DNA from: Eledone cirrhosa
Lineage: Eukaryota
Direction of reading: 5' to 3'
Assembly (NCBI GenBank): GCA_964016885.1
Contig: OZ024746.1
Span: 93,744,001 to 93,808,000 of the forward strand
DNA: 64,000 nucleotides
The notes beneath the pieces were generated by a model that saw only the letters and a program-made list of their open reading frames with translations, made no database searches and was not told the origin of the DNA. A program made the position numbers and the translations under genes. Shown one piece after another: positions 6,604 through 56,200 of this stretch. Positions within the stretch are counted from its first letter, which is position 1. Every line of letters begins with the position of its first letter.

Positions 6604-7144
6604 CAGGGGTTGGACAAAATAATGGAAACACCTAGCATCATAGCATCATAATTTTGAAATATCTATAAAACCGTCAAAAGCTTGTGGTCATTAAGCTCTG
6701 CAGTAATTTTGGGAGCTGTATTTTTGTGATCCTTTCTAACAATTCGCGTAAGAGTCCGACGGTCCCTGTCTGAAAATTTTGGTTTTCTTCCAGAGTTTTG
6801 TTTCGAGGAGGAGGTTTTTCCCTCTTTCTCAAAGGCTGGTATTACTTTCGAGACAGCACCTCTTGATACACCAAACATTTCGGCTGTTTTCGTTATGCTA
6901 GCGTCTGCCATACGAGCACCAACAGTTTGACCTGTTTGAAAGTCCGATAGATCTGTCATTTTAATGAATTTTAATTACCTTTTTCTGATGATATCTGAAA
7001 AGAAACAGCAATTTTAACAAAACATATTAAGCAACACTAATAATAAATAAAAAAACATAAAAATAAACAAGCTTTTGACGGTTTTATAGATATTTCATAA
7101 TTATGATGCTATGATGGTGTTTCCATTATTTTGTCCAACCCCTG
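6604..7144 (-). mobile_element. Internally deleted Tc1/mariner element
   Basis: ~70-80-bp TIRs CAGGGGTTGGACAAAATAATGGAAACACC..., TA on both flanks, inserted in a TA-rich microsatellite. Confidence 0.92.
6663..6959 (-). CDS. Truncated Tc1 transposase: N-terminal HTH DNA-binding region only (98 aa, no DDE)
   Basis: MTDLSDFQTGQTVGARMADASITKTAEMFGVSRGAVSKV...GRKPKFSDRDRRTLTRIV, Tc1/Tc3 HTH with GRPR-like motif; the ORF runs into the TIR. Confidence 0.65.
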   Translation of the reverse strand: MTDLSDFQTGQTVGARMADASITKTAEMFGVSRGAVSKVIPAFEKEGKTSSSKQNSGRKPKFSDRDRRTLTRIVRKDHKNTAPKITAELNDHKLLTVL

Positions 7145-7300
7145 TATATATGTATATGTATGTGTATATATATATGTATGTATATATATATATATGTATG
7201 TATATATATATGTATGTATATATATATATATGTATGTATATATATATGTATGTATATATATATGTATGTATGTATATATATATGTATGTATATATATATG

Positions 7301-7333
<33 letters not shown>

Positions 7334-7340
7334 GTGTATG

Positions 7341-7373
<33 letters not shown>

Positions 7374-7404
7374 GTGTATGTATATATATATGTATGTATG
7401 TATG

Positions 7405-7440
<36 letters not shown>

Positions 7441-7446
7441 TATATA

Positions 7447-7482
<36 letters not shown>

Positions 7483-7621
7483 TATATATATTTATATATA
7501 TATATATATATATGTAAATATATATGTATGTATATATATGTATGCATATATATATATGTGTGTATATATGTATACATATATATATATATATATATATACA
7601 TACATACATATATATTCATAT

Positions 7622-7654
<33 letters not shown>

Positions 7655-7681
7655 CATACATACATACATATATATTCATAT

Positions 7682-7720
<39 letters not shown>

Positions 7721-7743
7721 CATACATACATATATATTCATAT

Positions 7744-7786
<43 letters not shown>

Positions 7787-7857
7787 CATACATACATATA
7801 TATTCATATATACATACATATATATATACATACATACATACATATATATTCATATAA

Positions 7858-7896
<39 letters not shown>

Positions 7897-7995
7897 CATA
7901 CATATACATATATATATACATACATATATTTATATACATATATATATACATACATATATTTATATACATATATCTATATACATATATCTATATAC

Positions 7996-8053
<58 letters not shown>

Positions 8054-8138
8054 GTATATAGATATATGTATATAAATATATGTATGTATATATATGTATA
8101 TAGATATATGTATGTATATATATATATGTATATGTATG

Positions 8139-8177
<39 letters not shown>

Positions 8178-8222
8178 ATATGAATATATATATATATATG
8201 TATGTATATATGAATATATATG

Positions 8223-8271
<49 letters not shown>

Positions 8272-8380
8272 AAATATATATGTGTATGTATATATATATA
8301 TACATATGTATGTATATATATATATACATATGTATATATATGTATGCATGTATGTATGTGTATATATATATATATATACA
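7145..8380. repeat. 1.2-kb compound (TA)n-rich array
   Basis: Direct inspection. Confidence 0.95.
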
Positions 8381-9433
8381 GTTAGTGTAATAACCAGGTG
8401 GTTGTTTAGTTGTTGATTGCCAAAGCTCTTTCGTCATACATTCTGTAACCTCCTCAGTGATTACCTTTGTTGTTATTTTGTGTCTCTCCTTTGTTCTGTC
8501 CTTATATCGTCTTGTTTTTTGTGAGCTACGCATGGTTTAGTGTGTGTGTGAATATTTATCTACTTTAATATATTTATTTGTTTATTTATGTATACGTTTA
8601 TTTACTTGTCACCTGTTGGTTACTTATTCTATGTGTGTATTTGGTTTGTTTCATTATTTTAGTTCTTGTATGTCTCTGCATGTCTTTATCTTGTCTTTAA
8701 TTCCGAGTTGTGATGTTGCAATTCCACTAATATTTTCTGTTTGGTTTTAGTTGGAGTTCGTTTTATGTTTGTCGCTTCTGTAATTTGTCGGGGTATTGCA
8801 TCTTTTCTCTGTGTGGTTACGATTTTTATCTTGATGTTCTCTATTGTACCCTCATATTCCATTCTGGCAAGTTGGTGGGGTACTGATGAGTTTTTCCCAT
8901 CTTGGAGTTCTTTCCAGTATTTTTATCTTGATGTTCTCTAGTGTACCCTCATATTCAAAGTTGGTGGGGTACTGAGGAGTTTTTCCCATCTTGGAGTTCT
9001 CGCCAGTATTCATTTCTCCTTTCTCCTCTGCTACAGGCCATCTCATCTATGTCAGTCGTGTTCCTGTTTCTATATTGTCCCTCCGTACATCTCATTCTAT
9101 ACACTAGATTCCTAGTTTTGCAGTTAGTTGTGGGCTTAATTTGCAGACTATACATTTTCTATGGGAGCAAATTTTGGAATAGGATGGAGAGAACTAAGAA
9201 GAGAAACAAGATCAACTCGTGGTATGACAGCATCAAATACTAGAGTGTAATGTTCGTCAATGCAACCCCCAGAGGCGACCTAGCATACAGATTTAAAAGG
9301 GCGGGCGCTAGACAAGCTAAAATTAAACATTAACATAGTAGAAAAACGAGGTATTCCTATAAAAGCCCTAATTAGTAGAACATACCATTTTGGGAAAACC
9401 CCTTGCACTGATAGAAAATGTAGCCTGCAAATT
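8381..9433 (-). mobile_element. Decayed Penelope-like retroelement (Cys linker, GIY-YIG endonuclease, 3' end with hammerhead) with an inverted 5' segment
   Basis: - strand 9160 to ~8700, frameshifted: CIVCKL...NCKTRNLVYRMRC...DIDEMACSRGERRNEY...RQITEATNIK (decayed GIY-YIG); + strand 9160-9433: WNRMER...WY...SVMFVNATPRGDLA...IVEKRGIPIK...PCTDRKC (PLE linker). Confidence 0.75.
8415..8465 (-). ncRNA. Hammerhead motif in the PLE 3' end
   Basis: - strand: TCA CTGAGGA GGTTACAGAATGTATGAC GAAA GAGC T T TGG; core present, stems weak or decayed. Confidence 0.55.
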
Positions 9434-9454
9434 TATGGCAGGTGAACAGTGAAG

Positions 9455-9496
9455 TGCACTGATGAAGGATAATACCCAGAAACAATAGTGCCTGCA
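9455..9496 (+). ncRNA. Degenerate minimal hammerhead motif
   Basis: TGCA CTGATGA AGGATAATACCCA GAAA CAATAGTG C C TGCA; stem I TGCA/TGCA, U16.1 to C change. Confidence 0.55.
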
Positions 9497-9690
9497 ATTC
9501 TGTTCGCATGCCAACACAAGTGCAAGATGAGGGGCTCATTCTACTGACATGGCTTTAAAAATGAGGCTTGTTTGCATGATTGCAAACGAATCAAATATTA
9601 TTATTAATATTCGAAAAACTCAGATTACATTTATTGTATTCAGCCATGTAGAGCGAAAACATTTTTCTAATTATATATATGTATATATAT

Positions 9691-9786
<96 letters not shown>

Positions 9787-11450: not shown

Positions 11451-11605
11451 GGTACTTTATTTTATCGACCTCGAAAGGATGAAAGACAAAGTTGACCTCG
11501 CCTTTCAAACACATGACCTTTTTAATTAAGTTTTATTTGATAACTTGAATAAATAAAATGGATAGAACTAAACAGAATTTTATTCGTGAGTTTTATATCG
11601 AATAA

Positions 11606-11808
11606 TGATTTCTAGTATAGGCACAAAGCCAGTAATTTTGGGGGAGGGAAAAGTCGATTAAATCGACCCCCAGTACGTGACTGGTACTTTAATTTAAGCA
11701 AGAAAAGCAAAGTTAACATCGGATTTGAACTCAGATCACAAAGGGCCATAACTCTATGCTACAAAGCATGGTGTCCGACCCTCTACCGATTCTGCCAATC
11801 CACCGCCC
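11606..11808 (-). mobile_element. SINE family A with a 15-bp target-site duplication
   Basis: Reverse complement of GGCGGTGGATTGGCAGAATCGGTAGAG head; TSD TTTTATATCGAATAA at 11591-11605 and 11809-11823. Confidence 0.85.
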
Positions 11809-12277
11809 TTTTATATCGAATAACATTCGATTCGTTTGCAAGCCAACAGCCTCATTACGCTATGCAAACGAATCGAATATTATTATCATTCGATATAAAA
11901 CTCACGAATGTATTTACGAATCTGCTATATTAGATCGAAACTAATTTTATATCTAAATAATTATATTAATAAGAGTGTGAGGTGATAAACACTGAATCAC
12001 ACGCAACAACAAGGAACTTTGGACTTTCCCTCTAATCATTTTTGAAGCAAGCTAACATTTACAGCATTATGATAGCGAAGCTAAGATTCTGTAATAACCA
12101 AGTTCCTTTGTGGTCATCAGCTGACACATCGGTTAGGCGAACCACTGTAATGTCAAGTTCGCTACCAGTGGTCAGGTCACCCAAACTTTTCGAACGTCAC
12201 CAGCTGAAAATAAATTTACGATGATTGAAACAATAACAAAAGATAGTGACAAAAATTTTATTTATGGAATATAATGT

Positions 12278-33319: not shown

Positions 33320-34171
33320 GATAGACAAACAGATATTACACTGTATACACTTACTGACACTGTCAAGATAAACTGATATTACACTGTATACACTTACTGA
33401 CACTCTGTCAAGATAAACAGATATTACACTGTATACACTTACTGACACTCTGTCGAGATAAACAGATATTACACTGTATACACTTACTGACACTCTGTCA
33501 AGATAAACTGATATTACACTGTATACACTTACTGACACTCTGTCAAGATAAACAGATATTACACTGTATACACTTAATGACACTCTGTCAAGATAAACAG
33601 ATATTACACTGTATACACTTACTGACACTCTGTCAAGATAAACAGATATTACACTGTATACACTTACTGACACTCTGTCAAGATAAACAGATATTACACT
33701 GTATACACTTACTGACACTCTGTCAAGATAAACAGATATTATACTGTATACACTTAATGACACTCCGTCAAAATAAACAGATATTACACTGTATACACTT
33801 ACTGACACTCCGTCAAGATAAACAGATATTACACTGTATACACTTACTGACACTCCGTCAAGATAAACAGATATTACACTGTATACACTTACTGACACTC
33901 TGTCAAGATAAACAGATATTACACTGTATACACTTAATGACACTCCGTCAAGATAAACAGATATTACACTGTATACACTTACTGACACTCCGTCAAGATA
34001 AACAGATATTACACTGTATACACTTAGTGAGACTGTCAAGATAAACTGATATTACACTGTATACACTTACTGACACTGTCAAGATAAACTGATATTACAC
34101 TGTATACACTTACTGACACTCTGTCGAGATAAACAGATATTACACTGTATACACTTACTGACACTCTGTCA
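33320..34171. repeat. 45-bp minisatellite (~19 copies)
   Basis: Unit AGATAAACAGATATTACACTGTATACACTTACTGACACTCTGTCA. Confidence 0.97.
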
Positions 34172-38808: not shown

Positions 38809-38991
38809 ATAATAAAACACTCACTGTTTGGTTTGGATTGGTTTTCGCTTCTGTATATTTTATATCCCTATAGTTAATTTAGCTGGCAATCTGTGTTTAT
38901 CATTGATTGACCAACGGTTAAAAAATATATATATATATATATATATACAATGATATTGAATAAATGGAAACTATATTTATAAAACCATATT

Positions 38992-39055
38992 TATTTTATT
39001 ATATATATTTCAAGGGTACCAAGACAACATTGGTACGCTTTCATCAGATAAAATA
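38992..39055 (-). ncRNA. Minimal type I hammerhead ribozyme, family H1 copy 2
   Basis: - strand: TATTTTAT CTGATGA AAGC GTACCAA TGTTGTC TTGGTAC CCTT GAAA TATATA T A ATAAAATA; perfect 8-bp stem I. Confidence 0.85.
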
Positions 39056-40024
39056 CAAAGTTTGTTTTATAAATAGAGACATACCCATGAAAATCATACC
39101 TTATCGGTTGGAAATTCACTGGATAGTGAATATCCAGTGAATTTCCAACCTCATCCCAAGTCTTCCTACTCCATAGCTTCCATCAACTTTGAGTGTTCTG
39201 CATCTTTTTATGCAGCTCTTATCCTTCATACTCATCACATGTCCATACCAATTCAATCTCCTCCCCTGCACACTGCATCTGATTCCTCTTACGCCTATTC
39301 AAATATTATGCTGTAATTTGACATGCATTTTGGGGCAATGTGCATAAGATGTTGGTTTCGGGACCACATGTTTCTGGGTTTGATCCCACCATGTGGCATC
39401 TTGGACATATTTCTTTCTTCTAACCAATGCTGAGTTAGTGGAATTTGGTAGAGCATAACTATGCACAAGTCAGTCATGTGTGTGTGAAGGCAGAAGGCTT
39501 AACACTTTAGTTACCAATCTGGACAAAACTGGCTCTGTTCCTTTAGCATTTAAATTGCTCTATATTTACTATTATATTTCCATGGTAAAGTCTTTACCTC
39601 ACATAATTATCTCACATAATATGGAATCTATGAGATTTTGATGTGATCTTTTTTTAGAACAATACCTTAACAGCAGTATGGAAGGTCAGTTACAGCCGGT
39701 TTGAACAGAAAGAGGTGAGAGAATTCTAGCTGGATACGCCAGATTTAAATGCTAAAGTTTTCCAATTTAAATTGAAATCATCCAACATAACTTTATATAA
39801 GGACCTTACATTAAGTTACTTTGTTAGTCATGCAATAATTAATAATTGTAGTAAATCCCCCAAATTATTCATTAATTGATTAAAATAGAAGTGTATTTCA
39901 TTAGAAATGTGGTCATGAAAGGTTTAATGGTGATGGTGTTCAGCTGACAAGTGATGGCCTGAAAACTGTTCCATCACATCTGGTTTAGGGTGGGAGGAAG
40001 ATGGGTATATATATATATATATAA

Positions 40025-55996: not shown

Positions 55997-56200
55997 AAGG
56001 CTAAAAAGTGAATCTTGTTACTCTGGAGTTTCGCCAGTTTATCACAGACCAGGACAGTTCTTGTCTGATGACCCTGTGATAAACAGGCGAAACTACAGAG
56101 TAACAAAACTCACTTTTTAGCCTTAATAAAAATGAATATTAATACTCCATACTTTCGGTATTGAGTCCCCCTTTCTCAGTCGTCAACCACATACGGATAT
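55997..56200 (+). mobile_element. PLE-like element with hammerhead (family H3) and an inverted 5' copy
   Basis: 51-bp arms at 55997-56047 and 56074-56124; tail GGTATTGAGTC then (TA)/(TACA)n; fragments at ~22460-22570 and ~55430-55495. Confidence 0.7.
56060..56106 (+). ncRNA. Minimal type I hammerhead motif, family H3
   Basis: TTGT CTGATGA CCCTGT GATAA ACAGGC GAAA CTACAGAG T A ACAA; the sister copy at ~55466 has palindromic stem III ACTCCGGAGT. Confidence 0.7.

Follow-up and report, generated by a model that had tools for sequence, protein, structure and literature searches.

A dead Penelope-like element fragment with an inverted upstream segment, and the family of full-length relatives to which it points

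The locus studied here raises the question of what a decayed endonuclease reading frame, split into two pieces on opposite strands and flanked by TA-rich arrays, represents, how its pieces came to lie head to head, and whether the element behind it has any part in mobilizing the short hammerhead elements found in its neighbourhood. The surrounding eukaryotic DNA is AT-rich and dense in repeats, both dispersed copies and numerous (TA)n arrays; a 64-kb stretch of it, referred to as the window, was analysed as a whole. The locus is almost certainly a fragment of a Penelope-like element (PLE) and, taken alone, is an unremarkable dead piece of a transposon; PLEs have already been described with hammerheads, with inverted arms and with (TA)n targets. 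Its value is that of a pointer to a uniform and apparently widespread PLE family.

Identity and state of the copy

In a six-frame translation, open pieces run from 9162 to a stop at 8686 on the − strand and from 9160 to about 9433 on the + strand. With the protein P0003 as tblastn query, residues 92–139 and 126–183 match +9160–9300 and +9272–9436, and residues 185–242 and 226–272 match −9134–8961 and −8922–8782. Because these ranges map collinearly to both strands, the two pieces are consecutive parts of one ORF. A profile built from the two natural frames found 16 matches among 1,835,955,588 proteins, with P0003 as the best (E 9e-16), and two of the 16 passed the Pfam cut-off for GIY-YIG. When the ORF is rejoined as a read-through with X at the breaks (212 residues, compared with about 1045 in full-length relatives), it shows 42% identity to P0003 over 186 columns (141 bits). 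A preliminary description of this DNA had proposed a decayed linker/GIY-YIG region on the − strand, its upstream part on the + strand and an ORF that can be rejoined, and all of this is borne out. In the ESM Atlas, a 78-residue piece came to lie, at 0.95, next to unnamed eukaryotic clusters, and the nearest cluster having a family carries GIY-YIG on 15% of its members. Pfam gave no GIY-YIG match on five window pieces, and none of 24 candidates from a word-indexed search with the 78-residue piece matched, since the ORF is decayed; a profile–profile comparison of the two window frames with the relatives' family gave a weak match (probability 20%, E 0.001).

The fragment is thus a decayed PLE of the EN+ type, with its upstream segment inverted and a hammerhead at its 3′ end. 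It retains the end of the reverse transcriptase (RT) thumb, the Cys linker and the GIY-YIG endonuclease (EN), about 20% of the ORF. Segment A (9160–9433, +) is the inverted part and comprises the thumb end and the start of the Cys linker, with a stop at 9241 and frameshifts near 9302 and 9421. Segment B (8686–9162, −), assigned by profile, tblastn and tree, comprises linker and endonuclease and has a third frameshift near 9135, an internal tandem duplication (8822–9007, −) and a decayed YIG motif that reads DID. The duplication, which the preliminary description had overlooked, consists of units of 97 and 89 nt that agree at 84 of 89 aligned bases and differ by an 8-nt indel. In the CCHH motif of the endonuclease the first Cys is kept and the two His, both conserved among the relatives, are replaced by L and Y. 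Even in this decayed copy, the mapping of P0003 places GIY-YIG at the C-terminus.

Between the ORF stop (8686–8688) and a TA-rich microsatellite array at 7145–8378 lies a 3′ untranslated, pseudo-LTR-type end (8381–8685, −). The array, reported before as a 1.2-kb TA array beside the 3′ end, is the likely insertion target, linker-bearing PLEs being described as targeting (TA)n (Craig et al. 2021, PMC8557442). On the right, the composite is bounded by a second (TA)n array (9672–9749). The whole window yielded no RT core, nor did queries with the family, Neptune-type and Poseidon-type proteins find an RT or other PLE coding remnant elsewhere in it. The window contains a single truncated copy of this PLE. 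A broken end-piece with one part flipped, this copy cannot move anything itself.

Hammerheads and the short hammerhead elements

The hammerhead at 8415–8465 on the − strand (HHR1), already seen in the preliminary description, lies 35 nt from the (TA)n array. It is a minimal type I motif with a full core, an extra base between A9 and G10.1, a G10.1–C11.1 pair, weak stems I and III and a predicted cut after 8423. It passes a strict type I descriptor that none of 5000 shuffles pass, the descriptor having been written after the motifs had been seen, and it is not the minimum-energy fold of its sequence (z 0.45). The same extra A9/G10.1 base and G10.1–C11.1 pair are described for the minimal hammerheads of PLEs, which cleave poorly and do so as dimers (Cervera 2014, PMC4209133). 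By these features, HHR1 qualifies as a PLE-type hammerhead near the 3′ end, with cleavage being a prediction. Rfam detected neither this motif nor the second one in the region, but it likewise failed on a clean short-element hammerhead that served as a control, and its scan of the whole window was swamped by microsatellite matches. The strict descriptor matches five times in the 64 kb, at 8457(−), 1467(−), 39047(−), 53059(−) and 56065(+), as compared with a mean of 0.2 matches in window shuffles even under a relaxed rule.

The second motif (HHR2) was previously placed at 9455–9496. A + strand motif does exist there, but it is larger (about 9437–9513, fold z −2.9), defective and probably part of another repeat. 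It is a type I hammerhead with a long stem I that passes the descriptor only if the essential U16.1 may be C (as do three of 5000 shuffles), and it is likely to be inactive because it carries C at 16.1 and A at 11.1. The repeat to which it probably belongs, segment C (9434–9671, +), seems to be the 3′ end of a different hammerhead-bearing family: compared with the 3′ end of B, 74 of 300 shuffles score as well. The distal approximately 90 bases of segment C are homologous to 11863–11951 (0 of 300 shuffles), which is the right arm of an inverted-repeat element at 11580–11951 that is apparently interrupted by a SINE-like insertion (about 11611–11805). One frequent short repeat in the window may be an octopus SINE, which it resembles.

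Does this PLE, then, represent the autonomous partner that mobilizes the short hammerhead elements of the window, as had been suggested? The 3′ end of B and segment C were each compared with the six hammerhead-like elements in the window, and the best of these 12 tests was equalled by 7 of 300 shuffles, whereas none of 300 shuffles equalled the matches of the short element at 1467 to its counterparts at 39047 and 53059. The PLE 3′ end has no convincing similarity to any of the six, and the suggested partnership loses its footing here; in Xenopus, the link between retrozymes and PLEs rests on just such similarity of pseudo-LTRs, as far as the available part of that report goes (10.64898/2026.07.22.740005). 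Mobilization in trans without a common sequence would be conceivable, but nothing in this locus shows such a link, and the locus does not reveal what mobilizes the short elements.

Three of these elements (1348–1528, 38925–39109 and 52953–53070, all −) belong to one family of short elements, whose type I hammerhead is clean and has an 8-bp stem I and a stem III of TA repeats. In two copies the end lies at (TA)n, the copy at 39047 has a palindrome at its 5′ end (39106–39150), and no coding remnant lies near the copies. A palindrome of 128 bp (55997–56124), which contains a strict hammerhead with its core at 56065, resembles two PLE ends of another family joined head to head and has related pieces at 55449–55482 and 22540–22563. 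A 71-bp direct repeat (20230–20300 and 20546–20616, 92% identical) flanks a long hairpin (z −4.4), within which a hammerhead-like core at 20370 (−) fails the descriptor.

Clade placement and full-length relatives

The element had been called Neptune-like in the preliminary description, and it does have in common with Neptune a C-terminal endonuclease, a Cys linker, a hammerhead and a microsatellite target. However, the spacer from CxxC to C in its linker measures 20 bases, i.e. seven codons less one base. The linker pattern is matched by 119 of 172 proteins, 81 of which have a spacer of 7 and 116 one of 5–13 residues, whereas the two Neptune-type proteins among the matches have spacers of 23 and 24; hand counts from Fig. 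S2 of Craig et al. 2021 (PMC8557442) give about 25 for Neptune and 7 for Nematis. These two proteins (P0171 and P0172), the only Neptune-type comparators and typed from their motifs, score 22.7 and 25.8 bits against the read-through, compared with 141 for P0003. A tree of 208 columns and 43 rows, of which 39 were drawn from 101 eligible relatives, three were comparators and one was the window, groups the window with P0003 as its sister (100/98). Both belong to a 14-row clade (99/99) that also includes full-length RT–EN proteins, and the Neptune-type proteins fall outside it. To judge from linker, scores and tree, the window element is not Neptune, and the earlier assignment has to be given up.

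The full-length relatives provide what the window lacks. Two family searches returned 47 and 121 proteins, one of the few named matches being a Stylophora gene model, and identity among 71 aligned members has a median of 39%. In all 77 relatives with the full set of three motifs, the nuclease lies at the C-terminus. Among 144 proteins of at least 490 residues, 119 carry the RT3 aspartate and a GG[PAS]IG motif in RT4 at a distance of 127–142 residues (median 132), and the remaining 25 lack a match to one of the two motifs. The corresponding distances are 55 and 59 residues in the two Neptune-type proteins and about 55–63 in canonical PLEs; hand counts from Fig. S1 of Craig et al. 2021 (PMC8557442) give approximately 63 for Nematis, 84 for a Naiad and 118–152 for telomerases (TERTs). 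The family profile still recognizes the Neptune-type P0171 (E 8e-23). An AlphaFold model of the full-length relative P0101 (pLDDT 90) has telomerases as its Foldseek ranks 1–3 and best 17 VIA rows, and against TERT it gives Z 11.0 with an rmsd of 4.3 over 390 aligned residues, a Z that is modest considering the size of the model. When the family profile was run against PDB sequences, it returned only a weak match to a bacterial RT and no TERT. By its best fold matches, the modelled RT of the relatives would thus be telomerase-like, and the insertion between RT3 and RT4 can be likened to the insertion-in-fingers region (IFD) by its length.

Among the known clades, Nematis comes close in several respects (Craig et al. 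2021, PMC8557442, Figs S1, S2 and S7): it also has a C-terminal GIY-YIG with a Cys pair between GIY and YIG, a short C..CxxC-x7-C linker and an E-A-x-x-I motif, and the reduced C..CxxC linker is indeed present in the window. In the ESM Atlas, most neighbours are eukaryotic clusters without a name, and nematode records occur in some of them. Yet the relatives read DKS, KDHK and GG[PA]IG where the Nematis rows in these figures read DKG or DKR, KTHK and GLAMG, and they have an RT3–RT4 spacing of about 132 as opposed to about 63 counted by hand for Nematis. Thus, judged on the relatives (119 of 144 with the 127–142 spacing and GG[PAS]IG), neither the short RT3–RT4 interval that goes with the absence of an IFD in Nematis nor its DKG-type and GxAMG motifs are found. 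The Hydra clade is similar in its C-terminal endonuclease, (TA)n insertion, hammerhead and KDHK motif, but it has a CxCx5C linker and neither the Cys pair in the endonuclease nor an IFD, whereas the relatives' family keeps CxxC and the Cys pair. Penelope and Poseidon lack the Cys linker that is present in the window element. Naiad and Chlamys, like TERT, have an insertion between RT3 and RT4; DKS occurs in Chlamys as well, and the best fold matches of the modelled relative are TERTs. In Naiad and Chlamys, however, the endonuclease is N-terminal, which is the reverse of the order in the relatives and in the window, and Naiads do not have canonical hammerheads.

Apparently, then, on figure motifs and hand-counted spacing, the relatives do not fit any clade that Craig et al. 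2021 (PMC8557442) show. According to the available part of that study, canonical PLEs with a C-terminal endonuclease lack an IFD, and this part lists no C-terminal-nuclease group with such an RT3–RT4 spacing; six motifs of the family have no occurrence in its supplement text. No description of such a group was found in the literature, mostly its openly readable part. The fragment may be the fossil of an undescribed major PLE clade that combines a C-terminal GIY-YIG, a linker of Nematis length and a hammerhead with an RT bearing DKS, KDHK, GG[PA]IG and an insertion-in-fingers region of telomerase size, a proposal that we make tentatively and would put at somewhat under even.

The interest of this proposal lies in the relationship of PLEs to telomerase. 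Telomerase has the PLE RTs as its sister group, and among the few characters used to link the two is the insertion-in-fingers region. If real, a clade that combines a C-terminal nuclease with an insertion as long as that of telomerase would break the published rule that among EN+ elements only PLEs with an N-terminal nuclease carry a telomerase-like insertion, and it would change the count of gains and losses of this region. More than 100 diverse members of the family are already present in public assemblies and, since intact ORFs exist, the lineage can be tested by phylogeny and biochemistry. Seven relatives (P0057, P0061–P0063, P0136, P0138 and P0139) form a sub-group of 1580–1760 residues, in which members with both motifs keep the RT3–RT4 spacing and P0057 has extra low-complexity inserts. 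The Stylophora gene model (P0052) appears to fuse a Poseidon-type RT–EN fragment with a fragment of the relatives' family.

Origin of the inverted arrangement

The head-to-head junction of segments A (+) and B (−) lies at 9160–9162. The last 23 bases of A (9411–9433, +) repeat the first 25 of B (9138–9162, −) apart from one substitution and an indel of 2 nt; the match score of 39.5 was reached by none of 2000 shuffles and none of 1668 control tiles. The preliminary description had reported a motif common to both pieces at the breakpoint. The shared stretch is real, but only the copy at the start of B lies at the inversion junction, the other being at the far end of the + arm. The divergence of the two copies resembles that of the internal duplication in B (5 in 89), as a single template would lead one to expect. 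At the junction itself (9160–9170), three bases are common to both readings, and the first 11 bases of A, read antisense, match the 11 bases leading into A's copy of the duplication at eight positions, an imperfect microhomology that is short, was delimited after the fact and is a weak sign of annealing. Target-site duplications amount to at most one base at the six boundaries tested, (TA)n is missing between A and C, the place at which a second primer would be expected, and the + arm beyond 9433 shows no trace of segment B or its UTR. A reading of the + strand beyond 9433 as a second linker and nuclease was rejected, because its Cys-containing frame aligns only loosely to about 9460, nuclease motifs are missing further on and these bases also make up the long hammerhead stem.

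The origin that we slightly favour resembles twin priming, with segment C as a separate neighbour. The locus would be the dead 3′ fifth of a PLE with its upstream part inverted, both strands of the (TA)n target having probably primed reverse transcription on one RNA. The GIY-YIG nuclease would have nicked the AT-rich target, as established in vitro for another PLE. One end would have been primed near the RNA's 3′ end, copying hammerhead, UTR and nuclease into segment B, and the other inside the linker, copying upstream into segment A; in this geometry, which the locus displays directly, 25 nt are copied twice. The two cDNAs may then have been joined through the short complementarity at 9160–9170, and the copy has since decayed. 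Segment C with the second hammerhead is likely a 3′ fragment of PLE type that has no relation to this element and was already present next to the target, and the parent lineage, as suggested by its relatives, would have combined the Nematis-length linker with the telomerase-sized insertion in the RT fingers. Consecutive segments lying head to head with microhomology at their junction define twin priming in L1 (PMC2912911), from which this locus differs by lacking a target-site duplication and poly(A) and by belonging to another element class. Among PLEs, the anole Poseidon element is reported to cut and extend both strands and to start reverse transcription internally (PMC11167929), and overlapping inverted ORF halves are known from rotifer Pen3 (PMC3846280). 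Against twin priming stands the usual PLE layout of an inverted 5′-truncated copy bearing its own 3′ end (PMC8557442), as the + arm here has no such end of its own.

The main rival, which we nevertheless consider unlikely, is an ordinary PLE head-to-head double insertion that was trimmed later: the + arm would once have comprised A and a second B, most of which was lost except for 25 nt, bringing C against A. An inverted 5′-truncated copy beside the 5′ end is the common PLE arrangement, the locus was rearranged later, as its internal duplication indicates, and long inverted repeats are unstable; yet the absence of B and UTR from the + arm leaves this reading requiring a deletion of about 750 nt as well as the loss of (TA)n between the neighbours. 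The seamless joining of A to C, and the symmetry of a unit that has (TA)n on both sides and a hammerhead plus short tail at the end of each arm, would also suit a single chimeric event, in which priming of the top strand took place on RNA from the hammerhead family of segment C and the RT jumped to the RNA of this PLE at the linker. This would be real cross-mobilization of a hammerhead element by this lineage, but it seems improbable for a single instance in which C and the element's own 3′ end have no common sequence, all the more as rotifer PLE types showed no cross-mobilization in the material reported (PMC3846280). Even less probable is a later genomic inversion, by repair or replication template switching, of part of a longer collinear copy: it would fit an old, rearranged copy without target-site duplication, but the upstream RT sequence is missing beyond C and throughout the window, and the 25-nt duplication with head-to-head 5′ ends is what an inversion at the time of insertion should produce. 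The version of the preliminary description, a Neptune element as autonomous partner of the short hammerhead elements, is the least credible of all. Type I hammerheads and an end at (TA)n are common to the PLE and the short elements, and Xenopus retrozymes are reported to match PLE pseudo-LTRs (10.64898/2026.07.22.740005), but this version has against it the linker of 7 instead of 23–25 residues, Neptune-type scores of 23–26 bits and the dissimilar 3′ ends.

Several further repeats accompany the locus. An element of about 540 bp at 6604–7145 has long terminal inverted repeats and is flanked by TA runs; we take it to resemble a non-autonomous Tc1/mariner DNA transposon. Minisatellites with periods of 34, 79, 45, 30 and 48 occupy 1–503, 13281–14344, 33323–34171, 42869–44753 and 49133–49712, respectively, and a TA-rich array of 2.8 kb extends over 17088–19862. 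Finally, 45843–45953 gives a weak 5S rRNA-like match of 34.9 bits, under the gathering score of 38.
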